A stretch of 64,000 nt of DNA. Source: Nitrosopumilaceae archaeon (GTDB taxonomy: Archaea; Thermoproteota; Nitrososphaeria; Nitrososphaerales; Nitrosopumilaceae). Where the stretch lies: NCBI GenBank assembly GCA_965208905.1, contig OZ242365.1, positions 1,120,001-1,184,000 of the forward strand, in the 5' to 3' direction. The stretch's first letter is position 1. Each line of letters begins with the position of its first letter. The translations under genes and the position numbers were made by a program. Shown here in pieces: positions 1 to 41,846 of the stretch. The notes below the pieces were generated by a model. It ran no database searches. It saw only the letters and a program-made list of their open reading frames with translations, and was not told the DNA's origin.

Positions 1-2071
1 GGGCGAGTCGCACTACGGGTATATCTGGTGCCGGACAATCCGGTGTAAGTGCGGGTGTATAATCCCACTTATACACGACTACACACTCTCAAAAAGTTAT
101 GGTATGCATTTCCGGCCCGCTGCGCGAGACGGCGAGGTTGAATTCACCATACACGACAAGGGTGAGATACCTCCCGGTCAGGTGGGAGGTAGGCGGGCCA
201 TATGTGTAAACTGTGGACACACGTACACCAACATAGAGATACGAGACATGGTATGGGACCACGGCTCGGAGATGATGTGTGTTGCCACATCCGTACCAAA
301 GCGAGGGAGGAGTAAGTCGTATAGGTCGGTTGATGCGGATGACCGGACACTGTATGAGTCATGCGCCGCGCAGCTGAAAGAGTGTCGTGCGCAGTTTCGC
401 GAGAAATATGACATAGACCCAATACCTGACATCGTCATCCCCATGCCAGACGGCCTGGAGTATAGGCCGGGTGGACCGGTATGGCATGTCTTGCGCATAG
501 CTACGTTTGGCCACACCCGTTGGTCGCAACTCTTCAACAACCGGCAGCTACTGTGCATGGTGATACTATTGGATATACTGCGCGAGATCGAGGCGGACGT
601 AATAAAGAATCACGGCATGGAGCGCGGCATTGCCATAATGACTTACCTTGGGCTAATGATGGACAAGACTCTGGAAAGGTACTGTAGATTGTCACCTTGG
701 CTAACAGATAGTGGCAGAGTCACACATTGCTTCTCCCAACAAAATCTACGTAACACGTGGGACTATCCGGAGGTTGCCCCCCACATATTATGGGGGCAGT
801 CAATCACCCATATTTCGGACGGCATGAACGCGGCCCTCTCCAACAACACCGTATGCGACGTGCGACGGGCCTCGGCCACCAACCTACCATATGATGACTG
901 TACATTCGATGCCGTATGCACGGACCCGCCGTATTATGATGCCATGCAGTACTCATACACGTCCGACTTCTATGTGTGGCTGAAGCGCTCCATTGGACAT
1001 TTACACCCTGAATTATTCCGCGGCACGCATACTCCAAAGAAAAACGAGGTGATTGAGACAGAAAGCCTGGCCATGCATATAACACCGGAATGTAAGGTGC
1101 GAGACAGTGATGGCTATCAACAGCTAATGTCACGGTCACTACACGAGATGCATCGTGTGTTGAAACCAGATGGTATACTCACATTAGTATACGCGCATAA
1201 GACCACTGAGGGTTGGGAGACCCTCATCAAATCAATATTAGAGGCGGGATTCACGATAACAGCGGCCTGGCCGGTCGATACTGAGAGTTCATCCCGCATG
1301 AAATCCCGTGGTACGGCAGCCCTTGCCTCATCAATATACATGGTGGGCCGTAAGTGGGAGCGCAAACCGGTAGCCGAGTGGCGCACAGTACAGTTAGAGT
1401 TCCGCGAGCATGTGTGCGCCATGCTGGACAGGCTCATCAAGGCAAACATAACGGGCTCGGACTTTTACATTGCGGCCATCGGGTCCGCTCTGGAGATATT
1501 CGGTAAGTATAAGGCGGTGCGAAGAAGTAATGGCGAGCAAATCACTATAGACGAAATACTTGATGAGATACGCACCCTGTGCTCGGAGTTCATAGTAAAG
1601 ATGCTCACACAGGGTGGTGGCGGAAACATAGATCCGCTAACCAAGCTCTACATAACGTGGCGGTGGGCGTACGGCAATCAAAAAATACACTTTGATGTTG
1701 CGCGAAAGTTGTTCACCGGTGTGGGACGAGACATGGACGAATATTCGGGCAAGGGTGGTATAATACGGCGCAAAGGCAGTGAAGTAAAGCTGCTGACGCA
1801 TCAGGAGCGCGATGAAGAGATACGTATCAAGAGCCGCATAGATGCCATACATCAGGCCATCCGCTACTGGCACGCCAACAAGCTTGACGACATGAAGGAG
1901 ATATTGCGCGAGACTGGCAATATAGGCGATGTGTTCAATGCCGTCTGCAAGGCGATTGCAAGGGCCGGGAATGGAGAGACAGATGAAGCGAGGGAGATCG
2001 ACCAGTTCCGTTCAGGGCGAGAAGAAGAGATAAACGAACCTGTGGGGCAGCTAAGGATGACTGATTACTGA
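1..2071 (+). CDS. DUF1156-family adenine-specific DNA methyltransferase with Zn-ribbon (5' end outside window)
   Basis: Frame is open from base 2 (GYIWCRTIRCKCG) into the 655-aa ORF. It has a TDPPYYD catalytic motif plus SDFYVWLKR, VLKPDG and ALASSI motifs typical of DUF1156 MTases. Confidence 0.85.
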   Translation, partial: GESHYGYIWCRTIRCKCGCIIPLIHDYTLSKSYGMHFRPAARDGEVEFTIHDKGEIPPGQVGGRRAICVNCGHTYTNIEIRDMVWDHGSEMMCVATSVPKRGRSKSYRSVDADDRTLYESCAAQLKECRAQFREKYDIDPIPDIVIPMPDGLEYRPGGPVWHVLRIATFGHTRWSQLFNNRQLLCMVILLDILREIEADVIKNHGMERGIAIMTYLGLMMDKTLERYCRLSPWLTDSGRVTHCFSQQNLRNTWDYPEVAPHILWGQSITHISDGMNAALSNNTVCDVRRASATNLPYDDCTFDAVCTDPPYYDAMQYSYTSDFYVWLKRSIGHLHPELFRGTHTPKKNEVIETESLAMHITPECKVRDSDGYQQLMSRSLHEMHRVLKPDGILTLVYAHKTTEGWETLIKSILEAGFTITAAWPVDTESSSRMKSRGTAALASSIYMVGRKWERKPVAEWRTVQLEFREHVCAMLDRLIKANITGSDFYIAAIGSALEIFGKYKAVRRSNGEQITIDEILDEIRTLCSEFIVKMLTQGGGGNIDPLTKLYITWRWAYGNQKIHFDVARKLFTGVGRDMDEYSGKGGIIRRKGSEVKLLTHQERDEEIRIKSRIDAIHQAIRYWHANKLDDMKEILRETGNIGDVFNAVCKAIARAGNGETDEAREIDQFRSGREEEINEPVGQLRMTDY

Positions 2072-5000
2072 TGAAGTATGGCGACTTGAAGCCGGACATG
2101 CTGATAGACGGTCCGTATTGGGACAGGCCGGTTACACTGGAACAGTTCGAGAGTGCTGGACAGCACACCAAACTAACCATACGACGTTACAATGGCACTA
2201 CGAGCACTATACGTGTGAAACTTGAAGATATAGACATTCATCACACACAGTACGGCACGCCATGGCGTACAAGGGCGGCGGTTGACATGCTGCGCCACAA
2301 ACATGCAAAGGGTGGTGGGGCCGACATGGGTGGGATGGACCCCCTTCCGCACCAGATACAGTCAATACGCCGCATAACCAGCCAGTACGATAACATAAGG
2401 TTCCTGCTGGCAGATGAGCCCGGGGCCGGCAAGACCGCAGTCGCGTCCAGCATAATACGCGAGATGAAACTACAGGGACGTGCGGACCGCACACTGATAG
2501 TTACACCCGCACACCTCAAATACCAGTGGAGGGCTGAGTTGAAGCGATTCACCGGCCTGAAGGGATACATAGTTGAGGGAGGCAGTATAGACCAGTCCAA
2601 CCCGTGGCCGACAGACGAGCACGACATACTCATAACATCCATTGATTACGCCAGGGGTGAGAAGAACCTTCAGGTATTGGCGCGCATGGAGTTTGATCTG
2701 GTGGTTGTGGATGAGGCCCACCACATGAACTCGTCCGGCAAGAACGTAAGTAAACGGTACAGGGTGGGCGAGGCACTCTCAAACATATCGAAACACATGC
2801 TGTTCCTGACCGCGACACCGCACCGCGGCAAGCCTGAAAACTTCCAGCGCCTCCTGAAACTACTAAATCCGGAACTGTTCCCTGACGGCCTTTCATCCGA
2901 GGAGGTGGCTGTCCGCAAGGGGCCGATGTTCCTGCGCCACCTCAAAACGGAGATGACGGACATGGATGGCAGGCCAATATTTCCCAAACGCAGTGTAAGA
3001 TCCCTCAAATACGAGATGTCCATACCGGAGAGCGACATGTATAAAATGGTGAGCAACTATGTGCGCAAACAGCATCAGAGATTAGTAGAACAGGATGAGC
3101 GACAACTCGCACCATTCCTAATACTACTGATACAGAAACGCATGGCATCCAGCACGTACGCGCTGCAAAAGACGTTGGAGCGACGCAGGGACAAACTCAA
3201 GGACTATCTGGAGAGGGACATATTCCCAAGACCCAATCTGGAGTACGAAGAAGTGGACGATGAGTATGATGAGGATGACCCCGAGCATGAGCGGCGGGAC
3301 GACGAGTTGAGCGGCATAAGCGCGTCGCGCACGCCAGAAGAGCTGAAGGTAGAGATTGCCGAACTGGACAGCTTGGTTGAGGCAGCAGACCAGGCGGCCA
3401 GCACAAAGCCGGACAGGAAGCTTGAAAAGCTGCTCGACATAGTAAAGAGTCTCGGTGACGGCAAACTGCTGGTATTCAGTGAGTACATGGACACCATACA
3501 GTATCTGGAGAAGCATATTGGTGAGCGGGTATGCCGTATAGACGGCAAGATGAAGCAACAGCAACGAGATGCTGCTGTGCAGGAGTTCCGTGATACATAC
3601 CGCATAATGCTGGCAACAGATGCCGCGCGAGAGGGAATGAACATGCAGTTCTGTAATACAATGGTGAACTATGATTTGCCCTGGAGTCCAATTGTACTGG
3701 AGCAGCGCATGGGTCGTCTGCACAGATACGGCCAGGAGAAGGATGTTACAATACACAACATGATAGCAGACAACACAATAGAGGGGGACGTATTGGAGAG
3801 GCTGGATGCCAAAATCAAAGAGATAGAGAAGCAATACGAGGCAGTAGACGTCATAGGAACAATACTGTCGGAGGTCAACATAAAGGACATAATGGTGGAA
3901 TCGATTACGGGGCGCGTCTCCGATGGCGTCAGTAAGCGGATGCGGTATGTCGGGGAGAAGATGCGGCGGGAGCAGGAGATGTTGGAGCGCACACCGGTGG
4001 ATCTGGAAGCGGCTCTCAGGGCAAAGGGTGAGATTGCTGCAAAACATGTTGATGGTAAACATCTTGTATACATGATGCAGAACATATTCAGTGGATTGGG
4101 CGGGAGCGTCAAGTCAACCAACACAAAGACCACGATACAGGTACCATCAGAGTTGCGCAGTGGGCCGTTTAGGCGCAAGCGGGAGTCGTTTGACATACCC
4201 GTGCAGGAGGCTCTGTCAAGGGGCACCAAACTGTACAAGCACATAGAATCCTGGGTCATGGACAACTGCAGGGCCGACCTGCAGGGAGGGTCGGTGTTTG
4301 CAGGCAACTATGAAGGCCACATAGTGTTCCATATAACCAAATTGAAGGACAGTTCGGGTAAGACTGCTGAAGTTTTGGTGCAGGCCCACCGCGTCGGCGC
4401 GGACGGTGTTGTGCAGTCCGTGCATCCGGATATATTGAGCGAGTTGGACGATATGGGTGGAGACCCCGGAGCCAGGCCGGAGGTTGGCAGTGCAACGGAC
4501 AGGGCGTTTGAGGATGCCCAGGCTAGGTCAAGGCAGCTGAACGAGGAAGCGAGAGAGTACTGGAGGCATCGGAGTGAGACGATGAACATAGGCGGGGGTT
4601 TGGAGTCGCTACGGATGGAGTTGGGCGATCTCATGCCCGGGACGCCAGAGTGGAAGGCGATAGATGAAAAGATAAAGAACTTGGAGTCGTGGGAGGGTAA
4701 CATGCAGAGGAGCGCCAGCACAGACAAGCTGCACGTGGAGGAGCCTGTATTGGTGGGCTGGGTCAGGGTAGTGCGGCGCAAGGATACACAGGATACAGAG
4801 ATACGCGGCATGAACCGCAGTATGGAGATAGAACGCAAAGAGGGTTTCATACCCGAGGATGTCTCGAATAAACGCGGCCTTGGATACGATATACTATCAA
4901 AACATCCAGATGGCCGGGAGCGTCATATAGAGGTGAAGGCGCGGTGTTCATTCACACCAGTACAACTCACCCCCAATGAGGAGAATGCACGTCTTAAAGA

Positions 5001-5154
5001 CCCGAACTACAAACTACACGTGCACGTAATTGATGGTGATACACATTATACAACCATCTTAGACGATCCATCTAAACTGATTACAAAGAAAAATACTACA
5101 CATGATGCTCCGATTTCTGAACTTAACCGTCTTGGTGAGGTGTATGAATACTAA
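2071..5154 (+). CDS. SNF2-family helicase with C-terminal DUF3883 (PD-(D/E)XK) nuclease domain
   Basis: LLADEPGAGKT, VVDEAHH, LTATPH and QRMGRLHRYG motifs; C-terminal GYDILS...IEVK. Start overlaps the MTase stop. Confidence 0.88.
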   Translation: MKYGDLKPDMLIDGPYWDRPVTLEQFESAGQHTKLTIRRYNGTTSTIRVKLEDIDIHHTQYGTPWRTRAAVDMLRHKHAKGGGADMGGMDPLPHQIQSIRRITSQYDNIRFLLADEPGAGKTAVASSIIREMKLQGRADRTLIVTPAHLKYQWRAELKRFTGLKGYIVEGGSIDQSNPWPTDEHDILITSIDYARGEKNLQVLARMEFDLVVVDEAHHMNSSGKNVSKRYRVGEALSNISKHMLFLTATPHRGKPENFQRLLKLLNPELFPDGLSSEEVAVRKGPMFLRHLKTEMTDMDGRPIFPKRSVRSLKYEMSIPESDMYKMVSNYVRKQHQRLVEQDERQLAPFLILLIQKRMASSTYALQKTLERRRDKLKDYLERDIFPRPNLEYEEVDDEYDEDDPEHERRDDELSGISASRTPEELKVEIAELDSLVEAADQAASTKPDRKLEKLLDIVKSLGDGKLLVFSEYMDTIQYLEKHIGERVCRIDGKMKQQQRDAAVQEFRDTYRIMLATDAAREGMNMQFCNTMVNYDLPWSPIVLEQRMGRLHRYGQEKDVTIHNMIADNTIEGDVLERLDAKIKEIEKQYEAVDVIGTILSEVNIKDIMVESITGRVSDGVSKRMRYVGEKMRREQEMLERTPVDLEAALRAKGEIAAKHVDGKHLVYMMQNIFSGLGGSVKSTNTKTTIQVPSELRSGPFRRKRESFDIPVQEALSRGTKLYKHIESWVMDNCRADLQGGSVFAGNYEGHIVFHITKLKDSSGKTAEVLVQAHRVGADGVVQSVHPDILSELDDMGGDPGARPEVGSATDRAFEDAQARSRQLNEEAREYWRHRSETMNIGGGLESLRMELGDLMPGTPEWKAIDEKIKNLESWEGNMQRSASTDKLHVEEPVLVGWVRVVRRKDTQDTEIRGMNRSMEIERKEGFIPEDVSNKRGLGYDILSKHPDGRERHIEVKARCSFTPVQLTPNEENARLKDPNYKLHVHVIDGDTHYTTILDDPSKLITKKNTTHDAPISELNRLGEVYEY

Positions 5155-5201
5155 AAACAACCATACCAATGCTTTTATGGTTTTAGGATGATATTGTTGC
5201 A

Positions 5202-6131
5202 ATGAAACTACCCCGACTCGGCGATTTCCAACCTGGCATAGACTACCTTAAAGGTGGCTTTACTTGTGATTTTTTTGTATTTGATAGAATGTTTGACTCA
5301 ATATATCAGGAAATATGTCTGCTTCACATATACCATCCGCTAACCGATGCTGCCTCACAGATGGAAGAAATATTCAATGAATTGAAAGGTATCGGCTTTA
5401 ACGAGTTGGTGAGAAACAAAGGGAAGTTAACTGTGCCAAACAAAAACATCGACATTGTTCTGATTGGCTACCATCACGGCAATGACATGGAGTATGTCAA
5501 TGAGTTGCTGTCAACATTTGAAAGGAATTACGGAGTACTCAGACCTGACATATTGATATACTCTCTCGACGAGAAGAAGGCACAGATTACAGAGTTTAAC
5601 CGACTTGAGGTTATGTATTGCCCGCATTATGAGTTTACCAAGCATGCGTTATTCATGATTCTATCACATTTATGGAACCGTCGGAACTTCATATATGAGC
5701 ACGGATTTTATGTGCTGCTTGATCGACTGTTAAATGAAAGTCTGGTGCGGGCCTTGGGCATTAACAAAAAAGAAGATACAATCACACTGGGCCATAAAGT
5801 ATGGACATTAAGAGGTGTATTGAAGGGGCATTTGCCGAATAGTGATGCTGAATTTGTACTAAAGTTTTTGAACTTTTTGGCCGAGGCTAGAAATTACGGC
5901 ATACATGGTAATGAGGAAGCGTGGAAGAAAAGAAAAGAGTCATGGGATGAAGTCAAACCGGAGTTAGAACAACGTCGCTGGATAATTCCAAGTAATAGTA
6001 AGTTAGCAAGTATGGATGAGAAAACAACAAAAGAACAGAATGGACACAGTCTACTAAAGATTCTTACTGTCTCAACGTATATCATTAAGGACTGGTTGAA
6101 CGAGTACGCGAAACCTAGCGGTCAGACATGA
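5202..6131 (+). CDS. hypothetical protein, possible C-terminal HEPN domain
   Basis: 309-aa ORF, more AT-rich than its neighbours, with an RNYGIH (R-x4-H) motif in a helical C-terminal half. Confidence 0.6.
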   Translation: MKLPRLGDFQPGIDYLKGGFTCDFFVFDRMFDSIYQEICLLHIYHPLTDAASQMEEIFNELKGIGFNELVRNKGKLTVPNKNIDIVLIGYHHGNDMEYVNELLSTFERNYGVLRPDILIYSLDEKKAQITEFNRLEVMYCPHYEFTKHALFMILSHLWNRRNFIYEHGFYVLLDRLLNESLVRALGINKKEDTITLGHKVWTLRGVLKGHLPNSDAEFVLKFLNFLAEARNYGIHGNEEAWKKRKESWDEVKPELEQRRWIIPSNSKLASMDEKTTKEQNGHSLLKILTVSTYIIKDWLNEYAKPSGQT

Positions 6132-6663
6132 TCACTGCCGAGTCTAACCTATCGCCAATCTGTACCAAACATTAGAGGACTGGAAACGTGGCAGTAGTGC
6201 ATAAAAAGTGCAGTACTGGCCACAATCGTATGATGTTTTGTCAAAATTAGGCGCATAGTCCTGTCAACCTGTACTGTGTATATGCCTAGGCGATTTTTAA
6301 TTGTGCAGAAACTTTCACATACCGCTATATCTGATTCAGGATGACATGGTCTCCTGTTCGGGATCACCATAGGTCGGATCTGAACGAGCTTTCTCGGTAG
6401 GGTTGCCCATCTCCCCCGACGATCTCCAGTATGGTGTTCAGTATCAGGCCCGGCAGGTACTGCTTGACTATATCGAATGGTCGCTGATCACGTTTTGTCT
6501 TTGTCATTTGGGATGATTATGATAATCTGATCAATATACTTTACGATCTTGGGATGATGTATGTCCGTAGGGCACAGCCCCAATCCCCACAATCCTAATA
6601 TAGACATGGACTTCACCACGACATAATGATGAGGCGGGACATACTTTTTCGTTTTAGAGGCAC

Positions 6664-7413
6664 ATGAGTACGGCTAGGACTGTGTACGAGAGCCATGGTA
6701 CAAACACAAGATACCTTGGGTATGTGCTGAACGGAGATTTTGAAAGATACGTGAGAGATCGGGTGGGTCCCAGATACCGTGACGATGAGGGGGATCAATT
6801 ACTGTCTGATGTAGACGACACGAAACAGGCTGGTTTTGACTCGGAAGTGCTCAAGACCAAAATACACTACATACCATCAAGGATTGCCGAAGTTCTAGCG
6901 GAGTGCTTTTTGATGGACCGACACGACGTGTTGATTCCATACAATCGCATACGCGATGCCATAAGCCCCACGGCGAGTCCGGCGGGTCCGGACATAATAG
7001 GCATTGTTGGCACTCTGTTCATCTTTGGTGAGACAAAGTCATCCTCGGAACAAGGACATCCCCCCAGTGTGGTCAACGGCAGTTCCGGCATGATTGGGCA
7101 GCTGAACAGCATCAAGCGCGACAAGGAAAAACGTAGCCGCATGATAAAATGGTTGGGACACAAAACCAGGCAGTTTGAAGCCAATGCAGACCATACCTCT
7201 TGGTGTCGGGCTAAGCAACAATACTATGAATCGGAAGGACGGAGTTTTAAGATATGTGGGATATTGATTCGCGATACAGATCCAGACGAGCGCGACGTTG
7301 CAAAAGTACACGACAGTGTGTCGGTTGACATATATTCCTCAACACCATTGGATATCATGGCTCTCTACATCCCAGTACCAATCCCCAATCTGCCTGATGT
7401 GGTGATGAGCTAG
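6664..7413 (+). CDS. HamA-like (DUF1837-type) PD-(D/E)XK nuclease
   Basis: AEVLAE...GPDIIG...FGETKSS pattern; lies directly upstream of a Ski2-like helicase. Confidence 0.6.
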   Translation: MSTARTVYESHGTNTRYLGYVLNGDFERYVRDRVGPRYRDDEGDQLLSDVDDTKQAGFDSEVLKTKIHYIPSRIAEVLAECFLMDRHDVLIPYNRIRDAISPTASPAGPDIIGIVGTLFIFGETKSSSEQGHPPSVVNGSSGMIGQLNSIKRDKEKRSRMIKWLGHKTRQFEANADHTSWCRAKQQYYESEGRSFKICGILIRDTDPDERDVAKVHDSVSVDIYSSTPLDIMALYIPVPIPNLPDVVMS

Positions 7414-7414
7414 C

Positions 7415-10400
7415 TTGACCGCGCAAGAATATGAAGAGAGTCGGTTGGACGCAGCACACATGCTGGCCAACCAAATAAGAATTCGTCAACAACTGTTGGG
7501 AGAAAACAGATCACGACATGACAAAATAGATCGTGCAATCGACCTGTACGAACTATCTATCGTCGAGATGTGGAGAAGCCGCGATACCCCCGCCGGGAAA
7601 TTTCAAGAGACGTGCAGTAAATGTTGTGACTTGCTACGCGCCCTACCCCTGCCCGACGAGCCCGAGGAAAAGACCAAACATGTGTTGAAGTTGTTCGCGT
7701 ACTCATATCTAGGAGAAAGGTGGGTAGAAATGCAGCGCGTGATCGAAGAAGAGGCCGTTTGGGATGTACCGAAAGACGTTACATGGGATCGGCGGGTAGT
7801 TTATGACACATACCTGGCTATACTGTACCTGATAAAAAAGAAAGAATGGAGCGATTTGGACAGGTGCTCAAGGCTGGTGGACAAACTGCGAAATGATCAG
7901 AAGACGCATGAACGAACTCTAATGCAGAACACCGATCCTAATCAACAGGGGTATCTGGCCCGGGACTTGGCCGCATACTACCACTTGGCTGGAACCGTCG
8001 ACATACTGGCTCGCTTCATGCGAGAGGGCGGCAGCCCGAGTGACACAAGAGCACGGGTAGGCCATCATATGGATGCGGCTCTGCGGTTAGCTGATGGGGC
8101 ATGGGAGTTGGAGACGTTGCTGATCATACTGAAGGCCGCGTTCATGAAAATGATCGAAAATGCTATCTGGACCGTGATAGGTACAAAAAACCCTCAAACA
8201 ACCAACCTGATTAGAAAGATCACAGGACAGGACAGCCAGAAACCCGTCTATGAGTTGTTGTATCCGCAGCGGGACGCAATACGTCAACACCTACTTGATT
8301 CGGCTATCGAGGCAACCGTTCTCACACTTCCCACATCCAGTGGCAAGACACTCCTTGCAGAATTCCGTATACTCCAAATCCTGAACCAGACACGTGACAC
8401 CGGTGGTAAGGTGGCATATGTGGCCCCGACTCGGGCACTGGTCAACCAGGTGACATCTCGGCTACGTAGGGACATGGAATCTCTGGGTATAAAGGTGGAG
8501 AAGATGAGCGGTGCAATAGACATTAACGTATTCGAAGAGAATGTCCTGCGGGGCAACGACTTTGATGTGCTAGTCACCACACCAGAAAAACTGAACCTGC
8601 TTATACGCCACCCTGACGGACGTCTAGCCAAGGACATAACATTAACTATAATTGACGAGGCCCACAACATAGCCAACGAATCCCGGGGGCTCAACATGGA
8701 GATGCTTGTATCCAACGTCCGTAGTGACTGTCCACGATCCACACTGCTACTGATGACACCATTCATACCGAACCACCAGGAGGTCGCCGCGTGGCTGAAT
8801 CCAGATAATCCCCACTCTATAAGTGTCAGTATTGGATGGTGGCGCCCCAATGACCGGGTGGTGGGGATCTGCTATGCGGACGGGCCAAAGGGGGGCAGAG
8901 TGCTGAATTTTGAGCCGTTGGTAACCCACGGTCCCGACATGCGGATGTCCGAGAGTATACCATTGGGTAGCGTTAATGTTACGGAATCTCCGTCCCAGAT
9001 ATCCAAAAGCAAAATGGCATCATTGGTCGCGTCGGTTATGGCGGGCAGCAGTGTGCTAATTCTTGCCCAGACCATAGACCACACGTTTAACATAGCCAAG
9101 ATGCTATGCGACATGATTCCAGACGAGAAAGATGACGAGAACTTGGATATGGTTTCCAGATACGTAGAGCAGGAGATGGGACAAAACTTTGAGCTGGCTA
9201 GATACATCAGGAAGGGCGTGGGAATCCATAACGCGGGTCTGCCTGATGATGTAAAGGAATTGGTGGAGTGGCTCATGGAGTCTGGTTCGTTGAGAGTGGT
9301 AGTGTCTACCACCACATTGGCCCAAGGAATGAACTTTCCGGTTGATACCATACTGTTTGCCACACACAAGTACGCCGGACACGGCGACATGCCGCCCACG
9401 GACTTTTGGAACATAGCAGGACGGGTGGGACGGGTGTATCAGAACTCGGTAGGATTAGTGGGCATAATGGCGCCAAAACCCACCGAACGTAAAATGGCCA
9501 CCGAATATGTCCTGCAACAAACCGAGGATCTGGCCTCGCGCCTCAAAGCTCTAGTGGAAGAGGCCGGCGACACTCACCTTTCTCTCCTATCATACGCCGC
9601 AGATCCCGGTTGGTCGTCGTTCCTACAATACATTTCCCATCTGTACCGACAGGCAGGCGAGCTGCGAGACTTTATCTACAAGGCGCAAACTAGTCTAGAG
9701 AAGACGTATGGCTATGGGCAGCTGACCAACAGCAGCAAACGGGACCTCCTGAAAGCGGTGGAAGAATACGCGAATGACTTGGACCAGGGGAAGGGGGAGA
9801 TGGCACGACTCTCGGACATAACCGGGCTGAACGTCCAATCAGTGGAGACTGCGATGAAAAAGTCAGACGAGCTCACGGCAAGGGACGCACGGTGGGGCGA
9901 CAGCCTACTCTCTGGCGACTCCAGTTCTCTGGGGCGGTTGTTGGACATAGTGTTCCAAGATATACCTGAAACCAAGGAGGATGTACAAGGGATAAAATCT
10001 GGCGCCCCGATCACGGGAGACAACATGGGCAGGCTCGTTACGGAGTGGATGCGCGGAACTAGCCTTCACGATATAGCAACTAACATACTCGGAGCGGACG
10101 ATGCCAAGTCTATAAGTAAGTGCGTCAGGATTATCTACAACAAAGTTGCCAATTCTGCCTCATGGGGCCTGGCGGCGATGCTAAAGATTCCCCAAGAGGG
10201 TATTTCTGAGGAAAGTGTAGAAGAGCAGAGGCAGTCAGTCATGAACCTGCCGGCTAAAATATACTACGGAGTAGATACCGATGCGGCGGTGTTGATGCGG
10301 CTCAACAATGTACCTCGATCCATTGCCAAAAGGATGGGGGCTGTGTACGAGAGTGAGCACTCCGTACGGGAGTCCACGCCCGGCATGGTCCGAGAATGGA

Positions 10401-10507
10401 TCTCCGATTTGGGAGATTTCCAATGGAACAAAGTAACCAGCTCGCCATTCCTCTCTGGGGCAGAGTACCGAAGAATATGGGTAAGGCTTAACGGGGAAGA
10501 TCAATAA
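7415..10507 (+). CDS. DEAD/DEAH-box Ski2-like helicase (HamB-like)
   Basis: LPTSSGKT, TTPEK, IIDEAH, HNAGL, TTTLAQGMNFP and AGRVGR motifs; long helical N-terminus. Confidence 0.85.
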   Translation: MTAQEYEESRLDAAHMLANQIRIRQQLLGENRSRHDKIDRAIDLYELSIVEMWRSRDTPAGKFQETCSKCCDLLRALPLPDEPEEKTKHVLKLFAYSYLGERWVEMQRVIEEEAVWDVPKDVTWDRRVVYDTYLAILYLIKKKEWSDLDRCSRLVDKLRNDQKTHERTLMQNTDPNQQGYLARDLAAYYHLAGTVDILARFMREGGSPSDTRARVGHHMDAALRLADGAWELETLLIILKAAFMKMIENAIWTVIGTKNPQTTNLIRKITGQDSQKPVYELLYPQRDAIRQHLLDSAIEATVLTLPTSSGKTLLAEFRILQILNQTRDTGGKVAYVAPTRALVNQVTSRLRRDMESLGIKVEKMSGAIDINVFEENVLRGNDFDVLVTTPEKLNLLIRHPDGRLAKDITLTIIDEAHNIANESRGLNMEMLVSNVRSDCPRSTLLLMTPFIPNHQEVAAWLNPDNPHSISVSIGWWRPNDRVVGICYADGPKGGRVLNFEPLVTHGPDMRMSESIPLGSVNVTESPSQISKSKMASLVASVMAGSSVLILAQTIDHTFNIAKMLCDMIPDEKDDENLDMVSRYVEQEMGQNFELARYIRKGVGIHNAGLPDDVKELVEWLMESGSLRVVVSTTTLAQGMNFPVDTILFATHKYAGHGDMPPTDFWNIAGRVGRVYQNSVGLVGIMAPKPTERKMATEYVLQQTEDLASRLKALVEEAGDTHLSLLSYAADPGWSSFLQYISHLYRQAGELRDFIYKAQTSLEKTYGYGQLTNSSKRDLLKAVEEYANDLDQGKGEMARLSDITGLNVQSVETAMKKSDELTARDARWGDSLLSGDSSSLGRLLDIVFQDIPETKEDVQGIKSGAPITGDNMGRLVTEWMRGTSLHDIATNILGADDAKSISKCVRIIYNKVANSASWGLAAMLKIPQEGISEESVEEQRQSVMNLPAKIYYGVDTDAAVLMRLNNVPRSIAKRMGAVYESEHSVRESTPGMVREWISDLGDFQWNKVTSSPFLSGAEYRRIWVRLNGEDQ

Positions 10508-10946
10508 ATCAAGTGGTAGTCGATTTTCGGATTGTCGCATAACGAAATTGACTGAAAACAACACAAAACGGACCGGTTAAGCGGAGCCTGTATGGTCAGC
10601 TAAACCACATATACTTCTGCTGTCCCATCTGTATTCAAATTTGTAACTACATTCTAATTCAAATTAGTATATCCGAATATAACATCCGCTAGGTGGTTGA
10701 GGCTGCCTTCATGAAACAGTGAGATGGTGCACTGTGAGACAAAAATACGTAGATGTTTTCAAACCCTGGAATTGTTCATGAACCTTGTCCCTTCAGCATG
10801 GTCTCAGTCCTCAAATCTGAGTTATTTTTCCGCCTCCTAAATAGTATCAACACTAACTCAACATTATTGATAAACTACGTCACCCGAACTATATAAGGAA
10901 TGACACGTGAAGGGGCTGTTAAGTTAACGTGAGTCAATATTTGGTG

Positions 10947-12206
10947 TTAAACACGTGAGTTAGTCTTTGCGGCGGCCTGTATCAATGTCAACAATTTATC
11001 GTGGCCCTCTATGGTAATTCCAGCAGCCTCACCAGGGGTGATATTGCCGTCCAAGCCAAGATGCGGTCTTACATGGTTATGATAGATTCGTAGTCCTGAT
11101 AATATTGGGGAGTTATCTTTTTTGAGGCCCCGTATTACATCTTCCCGTAACCGTATGGTATTCCCGTTGAATGATTCCATTTGGTTGTTATGATGTATGC
11201 CGTCAAAGGCAACATCATGAATGTGTTCCGTGTTCTTGTGCAGAAAGTTCTTTGCTTTATACTGTTGTTTCCAAGCGTGGTGAAAGTTGGCGGCCTTGTC
11301 ACTGATTAGTGTAGTTGGGACTTTGCCAGCTACTTGTTTGGCCTCTTTGAACATGGGTTCAACATCATCATTACCCTTGTGTTCGGCCACCATTTTGGCC
11401 AACCAATAACGGGTTTCTGAATCCAACATTGCGAATAGGTATCGTCTATTTCCCTTGACCTTCATGTAGATTTCATCCGTGCGCCAAGCCTCTCCGACCT
11501 GTGGCCTTATCTTGTCTAGATATGTTTCCATCAATTCGGCATAATCTTCTGACCAATTGTATACTGTAACGTGGCTTACCTTCACGCTAAATCGCTCTAG
11601 AAATGTTGCGGCCTTTCTGGTGGATAGTCCTGCAAAGACCAGTTCAACGGCTTGGGTTATTTGTTCGGGTGTTGCGTGTTTTTTCTCAAAGCCTAGATTG
11701 TGTATAAATCGCTTGTTACAGTCTTTACATTTGAATTGCTGAACTGGACCTTTCTTGAATTTCCGTATGCAGTCTTTGTGTATATTCTCTGAACCACAAT
11801 GTTTACACCGTGTAACATCAACTTGCTTGATGACTGTTTTAGGTACTTCCTCTTGGACGGCTTCCCTTAGGCGCCGTGATATTTCAACGGCATGGGCGTG
11901 CTTGCATACAACACCCCTGTACATTGAATCGGGACAGGAACAAACCCATCCCGATTCTGTATGTATTACCTCATAGACCTTATTGGAAGATTGAGATCTA
12001 ACAGTATAAGTTGTATCATCAACTCTTGTTATCTGATTAGGCTTGCTTGCTATCTGCGCACCCCTTGTGATTCTAGCCTTTTGGCCGGGGCTATGATTTT
12101 TATCAGGTAATACAACAGTAGGCTCAGAGTGCAAATCTCTCGTCATTGGGGCTGATTCCCCTTTGGCATTTGTTTTCATCATCGCATTTACTGTTGTTTT
12201 ACTCAT
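10947..12206 (-). CDS. DDE transposase (IS6/IS240-like core) with N-terminal SWIM Zn finger and Zn-ribbon
   Basis: CSCPDSMYRGVVCKH (SWIM); CKHCGS...FKCKDC (Zn ribbon); WRTDE / LISDK / NNQMESFN (D-D-E). Likely start MSKTT at 12206 (track start 12224). Confidence 0.85.
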   Translation of the reverse strand: MSKTTVNAMMKTNAKGESAPMTRDLHSEPTVVLPDKNHSPGQKARITRGAQIASKPNQITRVDDTTYTVRSQSSNKVYEVIHTESGWVCSCPDSMYRGVVCKHAHAVEISRRLREAVQEEVPKTVIKQVDVTRCKHCGSENIHKDCIRKFKKGPVQQFKCKDCNKRFIHNLGFEKKHATPEQITQAVELVFAGLSTRKAATFLERFSVKVSHVTVYNWSEDYAELMETYLDKIRPQVGEAWRTDEIYMKVKGNRRYLFAMLDSETRYWLAKMVAEHKGNDDVEPMFKEAKQVAGKVPTTLISDKAANFHHAWKQQYKAKNFLHKNTEHIHDVAFDGIHHNNQMESFNGNTIRLREDVIRGLKKDNSPILSGLRIYHNHVRPHLGLDGNITPGEAAGITIEGHDKLLTLIQAAAKTNSRV

Positions 12207-12304
12207 AGTATAGGTAAATAACATGCCATATATAAAGTATAGGTAAATAAATTTATCAATTATAAATAGGTAAATTTATATGATATACAATTTATTTACC
12301 TATA
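12207..12304. promoter_or_regulatory. divergent promoter region with four (AGT)ATAGGTAAAT(AA) boxes
   Basis: Direct copies at 12207-12221, 12236-12250 and 12266-12275; inverted copy at 12292-12304; TATA-like stretches between them. Confidence 0.7.
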
Positions 12305-12492
12305 TGACAAGATTAAGTGATAATGAAACCGTGTTGACTTTGGCAGTATCAAAGAGTAAATCATTACGGACCACAGTACCAATTCATATCATACGTAAAT
12401 TGGAGGTTAGTCCAGGAGATCATGTTACTTGGGATTTAGACAAAACAGACAACGGAGAATGGATAGCAATTATGAGAAAAAAAGACGGATAG
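12304..12492 (+). CDS. AbrB/MazE/SpoVT-family small DNA-binding protein
   Basis: SLRTTVPIHIIRKLEVSPGDHVTW is the swapped-hairpin signature. Confidence 0.8.
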   Translation: MTRLSDNETVLTLAVSKSKSLRTTVPIHIIRKLEVSPGDHVTWDLDKTDNGEWIAIMRKKDG

Positions 12493-12533
12493 AAATGATG
12501 TCAAGAAAACACAAAAAGGAGTAAGATGTGGGA

Positions 12534-13323
12534 ATGATGTTGTTAAAGAAAGAGCCAAAATCTCCTCTTAGGTACGCTGGTGGTAAGTCAAGAGGCGTAA
12601 TGGAGATCTCAAAATACATCCCAAACGGCACTAAAGAAATGGCATCCCCCTTCTTGGGGGGGGGGGGCTGTGGAGATTGCTTGCGCAAACAATGGTGTTT
12701 TTGTTTATGGCTATGATAATTTTCAGCCGTTAGTAGAATTTTGGCAATGCATACTCGCCGACCCTGTAAAACTTGCACAAATCATACAAGAGTATTACCC
12801 GTTACCAAAACTTGATTTTTATCGACTTCAAAAAACCCAATCAGACTATACATCAAAGTATAGGAGAGCTGCAATCTTCTTTGTTATTAACAGGGCGTCT
12901 TTTTCAGGTACCACCCTTTCTGGTGGAATGTCGCCCAATCATCCCCGATTTACAAAGTCCTCCATAGAACGTGTGTCGAATTTCAAAATAGACAAACTAT
13001 CAGTCGAATTAATGGATTTTAGAAATTCCATAACAAAATCAGAAAACATGTTGTTGTATCTTGATCCACCATACCCATTGAAAAATTGTAGTCTTTATGG
13101 GAGGAGGGGAAATATGCATAACGGATTTGATCATGAAGGACTGGCCAAGATTCTCCATTCTAGGGATAAGTGGATATTATCATATAGTAATACTGCATAC
13201 ATACGTGAGCTATACCAAGATTACCATATAGTCACACCAGAATGGAAATATGGCATGTCGGTTGACAAAAAATCAAAAGAGGTTTTGATCCTAAGTGATG
13301 ATTTGGCAAGGCTAATTCCATGA
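12534..13323 (+). pseudogene. Dam/D12-class N6-adenine methyltransferase, frameshifted in a G12 tract (phase-variable or sequencing indel)
   Basis: KSPLRYAGGKS and SPFLGG lie in one frame; VEIAC, NRASFSG and LYLDPPY lie in the next. Removing one G from 12656-12667 gives FLGGGAVEIAC. Confidence 0.85.
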
Positions 13324-14261
13324 CATTGCAGACAGAATCGGGTAAGGCATTTGAATATGCTTTAGCTTATACAATCAGTAACAAATTACATTCAAAACAA
13401 AATGTGGAATTGATGTTGAACCCCACATATGAAAATACTAAGAGTTGTTTTGAAAAATTTGATATTAACATACAAAAGAAATACTTGGAGTCTGCTATTT
13501 CGACTGTAGATCATATAATTACCATCGAGCCAAGACTTGAAAATCCACTACGTAATGATTGCACACTACGAATCGAAATACAACCAGACCGAACAGGACA
13601 GTCTGGCGATGTTCGGGATATAATCACAGTAAGTTCGGATGACAACTGGCAGATTGGGTTCTCTGCCAAGAATAACCACGATGCCGTGAAGCATTCCCGT
13701 TTATCACACCTGATAAATTTTGGTCAGAAGTGGTTCGGCATACCATGTTCGGATGAGTACATGGATGAGGCAGGAAGGATATTTGGAGAACTCAAAAACA
13801 AAATGTCAAAAAGTAAGAATCTAACATGGTCGCAATTACCAAATAAGGTTGATGATTATTACCTTCCAGTACTATACGCCTTCCAAACTGAAATATGCCG
13901 ACTTGCCCAGAAAAACGCACTTATACCTCAAATGTTGATAGAATATCTTGTGGGCAAACATGATTTTTACAAGATCATGAAATACAACACATACACATTG
14001 ATACAGGGCTACAATCTACATGGTACGTTAGGAAAGCCATCCAAAAATATCAAACCACGATACAAGATTCCAATATTGAGCCCACCTACCGAGATAATTA
14101 AAACCAGTATAGAGAGAACCAACACACTACACATGATCTTGAACAATGGTTGGGAGTTGTCCTTCAGAATCCACAATGCAAGAACACATGTAGAACCTTC
14201 ATTGAAATTTGACATTAAGTTAATAGGAATACCAAATACTATGTACAATGATCGTGTCTAG
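13320..14261 (+). CDS. HaeIII-family type II restriction endonuclease
   Basis: GKAFEYA, GDVRDI, GFSAKNNHDAVKHSRLS and SFRIHNA...EPSLKFDI motifs. Confidence 0.8.
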   Translation: MTLQTESGKAFEYALAYTISNKLHSKQNVELMLNPTYENTKSCFEKFDINIQKKYLESAISTVDHIITIEPRLENPLRNDCTLRIEIQPDRTGQSGDVRDIITVSSDDNWQIGFSAKNNHDAVKHSRLSHLINFGQKWFGIPCSDEYMDEAGRIFGELKNKMSKSKNLTWSQLPNKVDDYYLPVLYAFQTEICRLAQKNALIPQMLIEYLVGKHDFYKIMKYNTYTLIQGYNLHGTLGKPSKNIKPRYKIPILSPPTEIIKTSIERTNTLHMILNNGWELSFRIHNARTHVEPSLKFDIKLIGIPNTMYNDRV

Positions 14262-14334
14262 GTATAATCCAACTCACTCACTTAACACCATACATCAACT
14301 CACGTTAACTTAACAGCCCCGAATAGAGTAGTAT

Positions 14335-14580
14335 ATGGCAATTTTAACAAAAATAACAGTAGCGGGACACAGACAAATCTACAGATATAATGATGACGTT
14401 TTGGTATATGTGAATAAGCAATCCGACTTCAGACCGGGTTTACGTGACATTCAAGGACATATCTTAATGTCAAAGGTGGAGGCTGATCAAGCCAAATCCA
14501 TGCCGGTTACCTTGACAGAGAATGGTAATGCCGAACATTGTTCCAAATGTTTAGAATATAATGGCTTTCGATTGATATGA
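14335..14580 (+). CDS. hypothetical protein
   Basis: 81-aa ORF whose stop overlaps the next start (ATGA coupling). Confidence 0.55.
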   Translation: MAILTKITVAGHRQIYRYNDDVLVYVNKQSDFRPGLRDIQGHILMSKVEADQAKSMPVTLTENGNAEHCSKCLEYNGFRLI

Positions 14581-15167
14581 TACAAATACCCGAAGTAGCA
14601 ATCAATGACACCAACAAGGTATACCCATACTGTGTAATAGGCGCCCCGCCACAACACATCAAACTTCCCATCTCAAAGGGCGTAATATCCATTGGTAATA
14701 ACAACATCATACGAGAGTTTACTACGATACACTTACCTACCCAGGATGTCACAAAGATAGGTAATGACAACTACATTATGTCATATTGTCATATAGCGCA
14801 TGATTGTATTCTACACGATAATATTATCTTAGCGACGAGAGTTACACTAGGCGGCCATGTAGTGATATATGACAACGCTTACCTAGGACAGTGTAGTGCG
14901 GTACACCCACATTGTAGAATAGGACGGAATGCCATGATTGGAATGAGTTGCCCAATCGTGAAGGATGTGCCACCATTCGCGCTGATTAATCAGGGAAAGT
15001 TCACAAAGATAAACAAGACCGGGTTAAAACGCGCTGGTGTTTCGGATGAGGACATTAACGGTATCGAGGATGTATATCGTGGTAAAAACAGACACTCTAC
15101 GTGGTATGAGAAAGAGATAGAAGTATTCATGGAGAATGCCAAATCAGTATATGCACCGGAATTTTAG
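14577..15167 (+). CDS. LpxA-like hexapeptide-repeat acyltransferase
   Basis: IGAPPQ, IREFTTIH, TKIGNDNYIMSYCHIAHDC and KDVPPF closely follow LpxA. Confidence 0.8.
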   Translation: MIQIPEVAINDTNKVYPYCVIGAPPQHIKLPISKGVISIGNNNIIREFTTIHLPTQDVTKIGNDNYIMSYCHIAHDCILHDNIILATRVTLGGHVVIYDNAYLGQCSAVHPHCRIGRNAMIGMSCPIVKDVPPFALINQGKFTKINKTGLKRAGVSDEDINGIEDVYRGKNRHSTWYEKEIEVFMENAKSVYAPEF

Positions 15168-15172
15168 GTGAG

Positions 15173-15440
15173 GGTAAGTTATTGGGTGTTAAGCTTGGAG
15201 GATGGGTGGGGGTCAGCATAACTTCCCAGTTCCTAACCAAAACTACAGATTTGCACAATATCTGATTATTTCAGGGGGTCCGACCAAACTTACCATCACT
15301 GGCAGATTTTGCCAAGGCTCCCAGATCAGAAATGAGTTTCGGTGGAAGGTAGACCACGTTAGGATAGTCATGCCCGACTCTTAAATACGGGAAATCGTGC
15401 CCAACCCATCGTCCCTTAGAATGATCTACCGACACTTACC
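15173..15440 (-). ncRNA. candidate ~270-nt structured non-coding RNA of unknown class
   Basis: Five nested complementary segments, a GUGA-tetraloop hairpin, a TATA-like box ~25 nt upstream, and no credible ORF. Confidence 0.55.
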
Positions 15441-15507
15441 AGCCACATCTGCGGGAAGGATATAACTAGAGTATTTGATATTTTGTGTGTGACTCTTTTG
15501 GTATGTA

Positions 15508-16386: not shown

Positions 16387-17038
16387 TTAAAGCATTATGT
16401 TATGTATATACATTTAATTTCTTTGGAACTGTGACATCTTAGGTACATGGTCCATGAGATGAAACAGTCTGTGTTTCCACAGATGTTGACGGTGAACCGC
16501 CATTCCGAGGAGCTCCATTGAGATGTCTCTTATTGGTCGAACTGTACAGCCCAACCTTTGGACAGCCTGTGCAGACCATCACGTCATGAACACTTGGAGG
16601 ATGTGTGCAAGCACCAAGATGTATCCTTCCTCTCAAGACCATTCCGGCCTTGTCTTGCAGTGAATACACGGACTACGCCCGCCTACTCCACTGCACTGCA
16701 TAAAAAATAAACAGTATGTTGAACGCCGTGTTGACATCCGCGTGCATCAGAACCCCCAATTATAACCCCTGAACTGGCTGCTGTGGCGCCATGTGTTTGT
16801 ACTGTCACACATACAGTATTGTTGTGAAGTGTATTTTGGGTTAGCTACGTGCTCCAACAGTGTATATCTAAAAAATCACTTGACCAAATGTAGTTACCGG
16901 ACGCTATACGCTACTGTGTTGCCCGTATTGTTTATGATTCCTGTTTTTAGCCATTGCCGCAATTATATTGCAGATGTTATGCACCTGAACGTTCCAAGCC
17001 CATATAGTATGGACTTTATACCATTGGAACGCAGCCTA

Positions 17039-39889: not shown

Positions 39890-41566
39890 CTACTCGCCCT
39901 GAATCCGCTCCAGCGCGGATGCAGGGATGGTGTAGAGCGCCTTCTGCAGGATGGCCCCCAAGACGGGCTGGTCGCTGCGATATCCGACGGACAAATCGTA
40001 CGAGTACCCGGTGGGCCCGGCGTTGTAGACTGTCATTCCCTCTCGCTCTGCGATGGCCTGGACCACCGACCAGACACCCGCGAAGGCATCGGCCTCGCCC
40101 TGCTGAAGCAAGGCCAACCCCTCTTCAAAACTGTCCACTGATACGTACCCGACGTCTGGGTGGTTCTCGTCCAGCCAGTCCTCTATGGCATAGTCGCGGA
40201 TGGTGATCACCTGTAGCCCGGGCTCGTCCATGGCCAACTGCATCTCCTGGGCGGTCACCAGGACAGACTCGATGGTGTAGTGGGGGGTGGTGAATCCCAT
40301 GTACTCGGACCTGGAGTCGGTTTCGACAGCCAGAAAGACCAGGTCGGCATCCCTCGCCCGAACGGACTCTAAGGCATGTGACCAGTCATCTATGGGAACC
40401 TGTTGAAAGTCGACACCGATGATCCTCTCAAACTCTGACATGTATCTGCCAGCGGCGCCGGCCAGCATGCCTGACTCGTCAAGATACTCTATCGGAAACC
40501 ATCCTGGGTCGTATGCCACCCGGATCACCGGGTGCTCTGCCAACCACGTCTTCTCTTCGGCGGTCAGCATCAGGCCCGGCGTACCCTCAAAGATCTCCAA
40601 CAGGGGCGGGGAGGCATCCAGCGCCTTCTGCAGGATGGCCCCCAGGACGGGCTGGTCGCCGCGGTACCCCACCGAGAGCGGGTACGAGTGGCCGGTGGGC
40701 CCGGCGTTGTAGACGGTCATCCCCTCCTGCTCGGCGGTGGCGCGGACCACCGGCCAAGTGGCGGCGAAGGCATCGGCCTCGCCCTGCTGTAGCAGGGCCA
40801 ACCCCTCTTCAAAACTGTCCACTGATACGTACCCGACGTCTGGGTGGTTCTCGTCCAGCCAGTCCTCTATCTCGTAGTTACGGATGGTGATCACCTGTAG
40901 CCCGGGCTCGTCCAGACTCATCTGTCTGTCTTCGGCGGCCACCAGCCTGGTCTCCAGGGTGTGGTGGGGGCTGGTGAACCCCATGTACTCGGACCGCTCG
41001 GGCGTGTGCGCCACCATGAACATGGCATCAGCATCCCTATCCCGGATGGCCTCCAAGGCACCCGTCCAGTCATCCGTCAGAACCGGCTGGAGGTCGGCCC
41101 CGGTGAGCTCCTCAAACTTGATTATATAGTGCAGAGTGACCCCGGCTATCTGGCCGTGCTCGTCGGCGTACTCTATCGGAAACCATCCCGGGTCGTGTGC
41201 CACCCGGATCACCGGGCGCTCTGCCAACCACGCCTGCTCTTCAGGGGTCAGCCCCAGGATTGCGGCGGGTGGCTGCATAGGACCTCTCTCCAGATCAATC
41301 CCGCGGGACATCAGAATATCGGCGGTACCAGGGAATAGACAGAGGGGCCGCGAGTCGTCCAGGTATAACTCCCTGGGCTCGTTGCACTGCACCCCGGAGG
41401 ACGGTACCCCCTGTTGGTGTGCCGGCGGTGCATGCGAGCCGTATCCGTCCGGGGATGCCGCCTGGGCAACCGCCACCACCATCATAGCTACCACTATCCC
41501 CAATACGGCGCACGCCATCACGTCGGATTGCCGGTTCCACGTACGGATGGGCGGCTTCATATGCAA
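39890..41566 (-). CDS. secreted protein with two tandem family-3 solute-binding (Venus flytrap) domains
   Basis: Signal peptide; LTxEExxWLAExPVIRVAxDPGWFPIEY occurs twice with a 228-aa period; visibly GC-rich. Confidence 0.85.
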   Translation of the reverse strand: MHMKPPIRTWNRQSDVMACAVLGIVVAMMVVAVAQAASPDGYGSHAPPAHQQGVPSSGVQCNEPRELYLDDSRPLCLFPGTADILMSRGIDLERGPMQPPAAILGLTPEEQAWLAERPVIRVAHDPGWFPIEYADEHGQIAGVTLHYIIKFEELTGADLQPVLTDDWTGALEAIRDRDADAMFMVAHTPERSEYMGFTSPHHTLETRLVAAEDRQMSLDEPGLQVITIRNYEIEDWLDENHPDVGYVSVDSFEEGLALLQQGEADAFAATWPVVRATAEQEGMTVYNAGPTGHSYPLSVGYRGDQPVLGAILQKALDASPPLLEIFEGTPGLMLTAEEKTWLAEHPVIRVAYDPGWFPIEYLDESGMLAGAAGRYMSEFERIIGVDFQQVPIDDWSHALESVRARDADLVFLAVETDSRSEYMGFTTPHYTIESVLVTAQEMQLAMDEPGLQVITIRDYAIEDWLDENHPDVGYVSVDSFEEGLALLQQGEADAFAGVWSVVQAIAEREGMTVYNAGPTGYSYDLSVGYRSDQPVLGAILQKALYTIPASALERIQGE

Positions 41567-41671
41567 GTAGTATTCTTGATTATATTTAACAATATCTTGG
41601 GGAACTTATCCCTGTGAGATACGCCCCCGCTGGCGGTTTCAGATATATAACATAATATGTCAAACTATATT

Positions 41672-41769: not shown

Positions 41770-41846
41770 CTACATCTTATTTGGTACGAATCAAATCATA
41801 GACTAAAAAATATAGATTCAATCTAACATATGATCATAATGTCATG

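Follow-up and report, generated by a model that had tools for sequence, protein, structure and literature searches.

The window analysed here is a 64,000-nt stretch of a Nitrosopumilaceae archaeon genome (assembly GCA_965208905.1, contig OZ242365.1, positions 1,120,001 to 1,184,000 of the forward strand; genome G000 below). At 10912-14320 it holds a 3,409-bp unit of four genes with inverted repeats at both ends (Table 1). These genes, for a transposase, a divergent AbrB-like protein and the two partners of a type II restriction-modification (R-M) pair, make up a candidate transposon related to the IS6 family of insertion sequences (IS).

Table 1. Features of the candidate transposon, in window coordinates
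Feature	Position	Strand	Basis or remark
Left terminal inverted repeat	10912..10961	.	bipartite; outer sub-repeat 10912-10934 perfect, inner ends ~10961; overlaps transposase stop codon
Right terminal inverted repeat	14271..14320	.	inverted-repeat search
Transposase	10947..12224	-	425 aa as listed; Pfam DDE_Tnp_IS240
Putative divergent promoter and operator region	12207..12304	.	four copies of ATAGGTAAAT
AbrB/SpoVT-like small DNA-binding protein	12280..12492	+	PF04014, sub-threshold
D12-class N6-adenine DNA methyltransferase, one frameshift	12528..13323	+	Pfam; homologue alignment
G12 homopolymer in methyltransferase motif I (FxGGG), frameshift site	12656..12667	+	
HaeIII-family restriction endonuclease, 313 aa, full length	13320..14261	+	RE_HaeIII 4.5e-97

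Architecture of the 3.4-kb unit

The two arms form an inverted repeat of 50 nt with 84% complementarity, and their outer 23 nt, GGGGCTGTTAAGTTAACGTGAGT, are perfect in both. With up to 3 mismatches allowed, GGGGCTGTTAAGTTAACGTGAGT occurred at two sites in the window, both of them element ends, and gave 0 matches in 100 dinucleotide-preserving shuffles. Each arm contains a second GTGAGT and consists of two sub-repeats of the form GTTAA..ACGTGAGT. An earlier note on this DNA, made from the letters alone, had described the perfect 23-bp termini, the imperfect likeness out to about 50 bp and the inner GTGAGT, and all three are borne out. The ends have CTGTT and a GG tip but lack the caaa motif. 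GAA, also pointed out in that note, does border the unit on both sides (...cacgtgaa/GGGG ... CCCC/gaatagag), but the common flank is 3 bp long and is not a target duplication, which in this family measures 8 bp. As had likewise been observed, a single transposase lies between the arms, with its stop codon (10947-10949) inside the left repeat. The right repeat begins 10 nt past the last cargo gene, and no remnant of a second transposase was found in this element or in 18 others delimited below.

The transposase matched Pfam DDE_Tnp_IS240 at 2e-13 (51.1 bits, cut-off 27), with a weak SWIM match at 0.005. Its residues 179-382 aligned with positions 1-198 of 202 in the NCBIfam IS6 model NF033587 (2.2e-29, 102.6 bits), and the next-best NCBIfam family was IS1, at 2e-11. 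The domains run in the order SWIM-type CxCx9CxH, CxxC..CxxC zinc ribbon, helix-turn-helix (HTH) region and IS6-type DDE core. Across an alignment of 11 transposases, D250 and D309 are invariant, E350 is near-invariant and R358 is conserved, residues that we take to be the equivalents of the IS26 motifs; the CxC..CxH SWIM motif, the CxxC..CxxC ribbon, an HTH-sized block, WRTDE, SD(G/K)A and NNQMESFNG..R are invariant as well. Translation more likely starts at Met7 (12206), which would be read from the TATA-like TTTATATA about 25 nt upstream. Public homologues (507 proteins at E<=1e-10) carry annotations such as 'IS1/IS6 family transposase [Thaumarchaeota]' and 'DDE-type integrase [Cenarchaeum sp.]'.

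The divergent open reading frame (ORF) of 70 aa, which likely starts at Met9 (12304) and would then encode 62 aa, resembles the MazE/AbrB family PF04014 at E 1e-4, its 22.6 bits lying below the cut-off of 24.7. A homologue at locus L065, 42% identical, reached 28.6 bits and passed that cut-off. (Loci are given L numbers and genomes G numbers throughout.) When the PDB was searched with the family profile, the best three of five matches were archaeal AbrB-family regulators, at weak scores of E 0.02-0.03. The AlphaFold model has a pLDDT (predicted local distance difference test score) of 69, and its top six Foldseek matches, none significant, include Sso7c4, C68, AbrB and SpoVT. The family sequence is well conserved (S.RTT.P ... 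GD...W). Between this gene and the transposase, the repeat ATAGGTAAAT stands at 12210, 12239 and 12266 in forward and at 12294-12303 in reverse orientation. Its ATAGGTA core recurs two to four times in the intergenic regions of L065, L058 and L088 and is missing from that of L010, so that 4 of the 5 regions examined contain it. By position and sequence, these repeats are a candidate operator for the AbrB-like protein that would cover both promoters.

Sister units in the same genome and in relatives

G000 encodes 13 substantial paralogues of the transposase, with protein identities of 40-77%. Seven of them lie in repeat-bounded units of 3.4-15.8 kb, representing at least six distinct units (Table 2). 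Every one of these units has ends that open with GG(nn)CTG, or with a variant differing in one base, and that are built from two sub-repeats.

Table 2. Units of G000, and units of other genomes flanked by 8-bp duplications
Unit	Genome	Size	Cargo	8-bp duplication
Window copy	G000	3.41 kb	D12 methyltransferase + HaeIII-family endonuclease	
c3	G000	3.36 kb	N6_N4 methyltransferase + 235-aa unknown	perfect, GAATTTTT
c4 and c5, identical	G000	3.60 kb	small ORF, N6_N4 methyltransferase, NotI-like endonuclease	
c9	G000	8.98 kb	Eco57I-like fusion enzyme	GATATGGT
c10	G000	14.7 kb	methyltransferase, Hypoth_Ymh, SocA/Panacea, nested IS110 + rve elements	
c11	G000	15.8 kb	ResIII + Mod-like methyltransferase, SIR2_2, DUF3800	
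L054	G005	10.25 kb		GAATTTTG
L056, otherwise identical to L054	G005	10.25 kb		TTTTCTAA
L061	G005	3.17 kb		TGTAGTAG
L113	G172	6.67 kb		AAATAATG
L116	G196	3.69 kb		CCTAAAAC
L129	G125	2.56 kb		CTTTTTAA
L131	G201	5.2 kb		TTCAAAAA
L132	G196	2.56 kb		CAAGATTA

Transposase homologues were found in 26 of 61 genomes of an order-level sample (E<=1e-20) and in 106 of 251 sampled across the class (E<=1e-30; this tally includes the unpublished genomes G242 and G156, which were used for the tally only). The first 20 loci, from close relatives, gave seven clear long repeat pairs and one weak pair. The second 20, from other genera, gave ten pairs at E<=0.01, eight of them of the GG..CTG type. Eight genomes together yielded 19 distinct elements bounded by repeats, between 2.6 and 15.8 kb long. 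Of 21 well-defined copies, 10 (c3, c9 and eight loci in relatives) sit between perfect 8-bp duplications; the other 11, the window copy among them, have none. The outer repeats of L113 (GGGGCTGTTAAGTTCACGG) and L069 (GGTTCTGTTAACTTAGCGTGAGT) are close to those of the window element.

An uninterrupted target site was recovered for one sister unit. The copies c5 (G000 1337692-1341644) and c4 (1851326-1854931), at loci L010/L011, are direct repeats with reciprocal flanks, GTCCGTTG/c5/AAAATAAC and AAAATAAC/c4/GTCCGTTG. On contig C2 of the closest relative, G005, the sequence left of c4 (97%, 1.3 kb) directly adjoins that right of c5 (98%, 1.9 kb), with a single AAAATAAC at the junction, and collinearity extends about 35 kb on one side and about 32 kb on the other. 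Judged by these alignments, C2 carries the target site of a 3.6-kb cargo unit in its uninterrupted form. The two halves of the site now lie 0.51 Mb apart in G000, each beside a copy. Such a topology is what a cointegrate between two circles leaves, and a multi-step rearrangement or a mis-join across the 3.6-kb repeats would look alike; no other origin considered fits the pattern. Intramolecular replicative transposition and sister-chromosome events were rejected as sources, as neither gives the pattern without duplication or deletion.

Further irregularities were seen at these and other ends. With c4 and c5 so placed, the chromosome of G000 has the appearance of two circles, of 0.51 and 1.70 Mb, joined into one, or else of a mis-join across the repeat. 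In c5, a 351-bp tandem duplicate of the right end (L011:4745-5148) results in two right repeats and a duplicated endonuclease N-terminus. At L137:1446-1580 (G000 about 2125414-2125548), three different transposon-end-like sequences stand head to tail, one of them a solo copy of the window's repeat with 2 mismatches, and this stack suggests that elements insert at or beside each other's ends.

R-M domains (a DNA methyltransferase and/or a restriction endonuclease) occur in 14 of the 19 delimited elements scanned: the window element, c3, c4, c9, c10, c11, L061, L062, L065, L069, L113, L114, L116 and L131. Their types vary by element and comprise D12/HaeIII, N6_N4 with NotI, N6_N4 with MvaI/BcnI, N6_N4 with HNH, EcoRI-type with GmrSD/HNH, type IIG fusions, type III-like and type I-like systems, within units of 2-15 passenger genes. 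Other cargo is of a different kind: L054 carries surface Ig-like proteins and a nested IS, and in L129, L130 and L132 the cargo consists of unknowns, a ClpP/SDH-like protease and DUF4760. Of the 13 cargo ORFs of L118, three were scanned, and these three were nested IS. The slot for exchangeable defence cargo proposed in the earlier note is therefore upheld in that cargo varies and R-M genes are common, and goes too far where units carry surface proteins, a protease or unknowns. A 2,826-bp unit of G022 (40224-43049; L066, L067, L111, L112) lies outside this census. It is present in two copies with perfect ~50-bp ends and the transposase in the middle, and a second, different end-like sequence directly after the transposase stop hints at modular exchange of ends.

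A regulator gene beside the transposase is frequent and conserved, not universal, and the notion of a 'fixed' tnp/abrB core had to be given up. The 62-aa query returned 26 non-self abrB matches in 60 relatives, and at 13 or more of these 26 sites the gene is divergent from and within about 350 nt of a transposase (13 being a lower bound, as 31 transposase matches were absent from the list compared). The transposases paired in this way include some only 32-37% identical to the window's (G010, G012, G039, G053, G022:488405). By tblastn, G000 has no abrB paralogue beyond the element's own copy, and gene calling yielded no small divergent regulator in, at the least, c3, L061, L062 and three elements of 9-16 kb. 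By eye, and unscored, small ORFs of other shapes take the abrB position: an MTRWKK... type in c4, L114 and L129, a ribbon-helix-helix-looking ORF in L069, and a KG.YLYY type in L132, which in c3 is fused to the methyltransferase.

In G009 and G006, transposases with 32-34% identity occur in several copies as plain IS, with the second repeat just upstream of the gene. The earlier note had named this layout as one that would speak against a unit transposon; it was found in these distant relatives and not in the cargo elements, and the reading stands. Compared at three copies each, the plain IS measure about 1,454-1,456 bp and 1,631 bp and have the repeats GGTTCC.CTTGCAAGAATGGGTGATTG and GGTTCT...GCAAAT.CGGG.GTTAT, and around each of the six copies stands a separate duplication, 8 bp long except for two of 9 bp. 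With 19 elements, ten 8-bp duplications and one sister empty site, we conclude that the suggested family of single-transposase, probably IS6-derived unit transposons in ammonia-oxidising archaea is real, with mostly R-M cargo and often an AbrB-type regulator.

R-M cargo and its G tract

Domain searches bore out the Dam-like methyltransferase (D12 class) and the HaeIII-family endonuclease that had been read between the repeats, and the AbrB-like protein at a sub-threshold score; a defect had gone unseen. A frameshift at the G12 run divides the methyltransferase between ORFs 12528-12716 and 12670-13323, which in alignment correspond to residues 1-44 and 46-255 of an intact homologue of 256 aa from G023 (L102). 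The endonuclease is complete, covering positions 1-298 of 298 of its profile; with the methyltransferase frameshifted, the element lacks an intact type II R-M system. Because the endonuclease start overlaps the methyltransferase stop (ATGA), the shift may silence both genes. A HaeIII-family/N6-adenine pair should differ in site from HaeIII, since GGCC contains no adenine. In G023, from another genus, the same pair recurs without a transposase and without abrB; its methyltransferase is intact, with 62-66% identity to the two pieces in the window, and its endonuclease shares 51% identity over 310 aa. Homologues of the window endonuclease were found in 2 of 60 relatives searched.

The G12 tract was reproduced with 0 gaps in contigs of sequencing runs X1 and X3 (one sample, possibly the assembly's own source). 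In run X6, an RNA library of another study, a contig 98% identical over 12322-12779 has G8, with four fewer G and the frame restored. With G12 recurring in X1 and X3 and G8 found in X6, the tract length differs between strains and the frameshift is probably real. It may represent decay, or the off state of a length-variable tract.

Long tracts recur elsewhere in G000, whose 45.6% GC genome has eleven G/C runs of 10-15 nt where base composition leads us to estimate about 1.3. Four of the eleven are associated with R-M or defence genes. The split of the window's methyltransferase is one; the run at 1772125 splits an N6_N4 methyltransferase-HNH gene, that at 1701145 splits an ORF adjoining the methyltransferase of c10, and that at 150686 sits just upstream of a SIR2_2 gene. 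These runs may mark phase-variable defence loci in an archaeon, or homopolymer errors.

Mobility, rival explanations and significance

Considering the evidence together, we put at about 80% the probability that window 10912-14320 is an IS6-derived unit transposon (a 'transporter IS') with an R-M cargo slot. One DDE transposase, extended N-terminally by a SWIM zinc finger and a zinc ribbon, would recognise the two sub-repeats of each ~50-bp end, and everything between the ends would move as one piece, with 8 bp of target duplicated. The AbrB-like protein would most likely bind the ATAGGTA repeats and hold both divergent promoters down, and the rest of the element would serve as the cargo slot, occupied here by a type II R-M pair. 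By analogy with IS26, transposition would be replicative and of the cointegrate type. Among other transposons, Tn3 elements carry a resolvase. That the window copy was itself mobile is something we infer.

In its present state this copy looks stranded: it is single-copy, has no duplication, abuts a fragment of another element and has its methyltransferase out of frame. The fragment, 78 nt at its left (10835-10912), is a 97% copy of another paralogue's promoter and first 13 nt (G000 156625-156702). Adjacent deletions or rearrangements of the IS6 type would account for the missing duplication. Window 1-15466 is without a counterpart in G005, to which the window matches at 94-98% from 15467 on, nor is there synteny on the far side of the G005 site. 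A pattern search with the 23-mer at <=3 mismatches through 161 family genomes gave, beyond the window, a solo site in G000, one site each in G007 and G260, and no others. A contig of run X5, 93% identical and spanning transposase and abrB, ends at 12550; that it carries a different cargo was rejected, as it ends at a graph branch, and short unitigs past it run into sequence present at two other G000 places. Element parts uncovered in X5 and X6 are not evidence of absence.

The surrounding sequence has features of its own. The strain-specific stretch 1-15466 includes a 1030-aa DEAD/ResIII helicase (7415-10507) and a hexapeptide acyltransferase (14577-15167), and 10599-10663 is a small repeat with copies at G000 1517894 and 713712. 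A 329-bp insertion relative to G005 (16685-17013) belongs to a ~350-380-bp repeat with the look of a miniature inverted-repeat transposable element; G000 has over ten copies of this repeat, which G005 and G008 contain too. We took an RVT_1 match of ORF 14335-14580 (E 0.006, below cut-off) as noise.

The portions of the IS6 review used here (Varani et al. 2021, PMC7986276) describe elements with 8-bp duplications, GG tips, cTGTt and caaa motifs and 15-20-bp repeats, about 0.8 kb and up to 1.76 kb long with one ORF, for which adjacent deletions and rearrangements are known. They also describe longer clades, h and i, with a zinc finger or an extra N-terminal domain, list archaeal members only from Halobacteria, Thermococcales, Methanococcales and Sulfolobales, and name ISDsp3 as the only passenger-carrying member ('tIS'). 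The units reported here resemble IS6 in their best transposase profile, the family's 8-bp duplication and GG..CTGT tips, in having plain-IS distant relatives with GCAA(A) in the repeat, in the zinc finger and extra N-terminal part of the transposase that clades h and i show as well, and in one sister pair with cointegrate-like flanks. Because the plain-IS relatives match the IS6 description, the cargo units appear to be an offshoot of a bona fide IS6-like lineage. They are unlike IS6 in their size of 2.6-15.8 kb, their ~50-bp bipartite ends and their 2-15 passenger genes.

Several observations weigh against an IS6-derived transposon at this locus. The NCBIfam IS6 score of 102.6 bits is below the curated cut-off of 125, and the ends are 50 bp long and bipartite, compared with the 15-20 bp of IS6. 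The PF04014 score of the AbrB-like protein is weak, and Foldseek with its model gave 0 matches at E<=0.001. G000 holds no second copy of the window element, the exact 23-mer had 0 matches in JGI metagenome contigs, and there is no 8-bp duplication around the window copy, its flanking 8-mers CACGTGAA and GAATAGAG being different. The search for an empty site, suggested earlier, succeeded for c4/c5 in G005, and for the window copy none was found in 9 genomes of the genus or in the two closest relatives. No repeat pair was found within 15 kb for 6 of the 13 G000 paralogues, or at about half of the relatives' loci, where many copies may be decayed or their ends missed. Finally, the mechanism rests on analogy, with no transposition directly observed.

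The first two of these points also favour the best-placed rival, a separate new transposon family that shares only the DDE fold with IS6 and may move by cut-and-paste and not through cointegrates. The N-terminal SWIM and zinc-ribbon extension of ~178 aa fits it too, as do the many simple insertions with clean duplications, which cut-and-paste or copy-paste would also be expected to produce. We nevertheless consider it unlikely: the IS6 profile scores 18 orders of magnitude better than IS1 and is matched from one end to the other, the elements duplicate 8 bp of target, and their tips are GG with CTGT. The distant-clade ends GGTTCT...GCAAAT are close to the IS6 consensus as given in those parts of the review (PMC7986276), and the flank topology of c4/c5 is that left by a cointegrate.

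Far less probable is that the R-M pair was itself mobile and inserted into a resident IS, the AbrB-like gene being its controller protein. Such an origin would suit the pair that stands alone in G023, the position of abrB directly upstream of the methyltransferase on the same strand, and the RNA-library contig that spans abrB and the methyltransferase start (no proof of a single transcript). Yet abrB stays beside the transposase while the cargo changes, from D12/HaeIII in the window to an opposite-strand N6_N4 methyltransferase in L065 and a type I-like system in L131; the G023 pair lacks abrB, and the place of the repeated motif is the gap separating abrB from the transposase, not the region ahead of the methyltransferase. 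Least credible of all is a compound remnant, in which two IS once flanked the R-M genes, one lost its transposase and the whole never moved as a unit: pairs are the classical way for IS6 members to mobilise cargo (in the covered parts of PMC7986276) and the window copy has no duplication, but no second-transposase remnant occurs in this element or 18 others, the right repeat lies 10 nt past the last cargo gene, 8-bp duplications flank the entire unit in ten sister copies, and the flanking IS of IS6 compound transposons are direct repeats (PMC7986276, same parts), unlike this single-transposase layout.

Like ISDsp3, an IS6-derived unit transposon encloses one IS6-type transposase together with a passenger between a single pair of ends. 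ISDsp3, as described in the covered text, comes from a bacterium (Dehalococcoides), where it is present once with one hypothetical gene as its passenger, whereas the present units form an archaeal radiation across several genera, with R-M cargo and a regulator. Bacterial unit and Tn7-like elements, from the sections consulted of Benler et al. 2021 (PMC8649781), likewise have variable cargo rich in defence systems; Tn7-like elements, unlike these, have multi-gene transposition modules, where here there is one IS6-type transposase with at most an AbrB-like gene. In the same phylum, the thaumarchaeal survey of Krupovic et al. 2019 (PMC6563490) reports, in the portion cited, abundant IS-like transposons of 1-2 genes, and states that passenger-carrying DNA transposons were undetected in archaea, thaumarchaea included, as of 2019. 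The earlier note had not recognised the element as described, and the literature covered (with subscription journals, supplements, ISfinder and TnCentral outside it) likewise contained no description of IS6-type cargo transposons or transposon-borne R-M in these archaea. Provisionally, then, we regard the family as undescribed.

A wider picture, which we offer tentatively, is that ammonia-oxidising archaea host class-wide an undescribed radiation of IS6-derived cargo transposons that act as dedicated R-M and defence vehicles with their own AbrB-type repressor, reshape chromosomes by cointegrate-type events and have cargo switched by long G/C tracts, an archaeal counterpart of phase-variable R-M. 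Set against the statement of 2019 (PMC6563490) that no such transposons had been detected in archaea, a single archaeal genome contains at least six distinct cargo units. If active, these units would provide a path for the spread of R-M and other defence genes, both within ammonia oxidisers and from one to another, and would explain strain-specific islands and rearrangements. One transposase with two ~50-bp ends is, moreover, a compact natural system, and a possible genetic tool for organisms that now have none.

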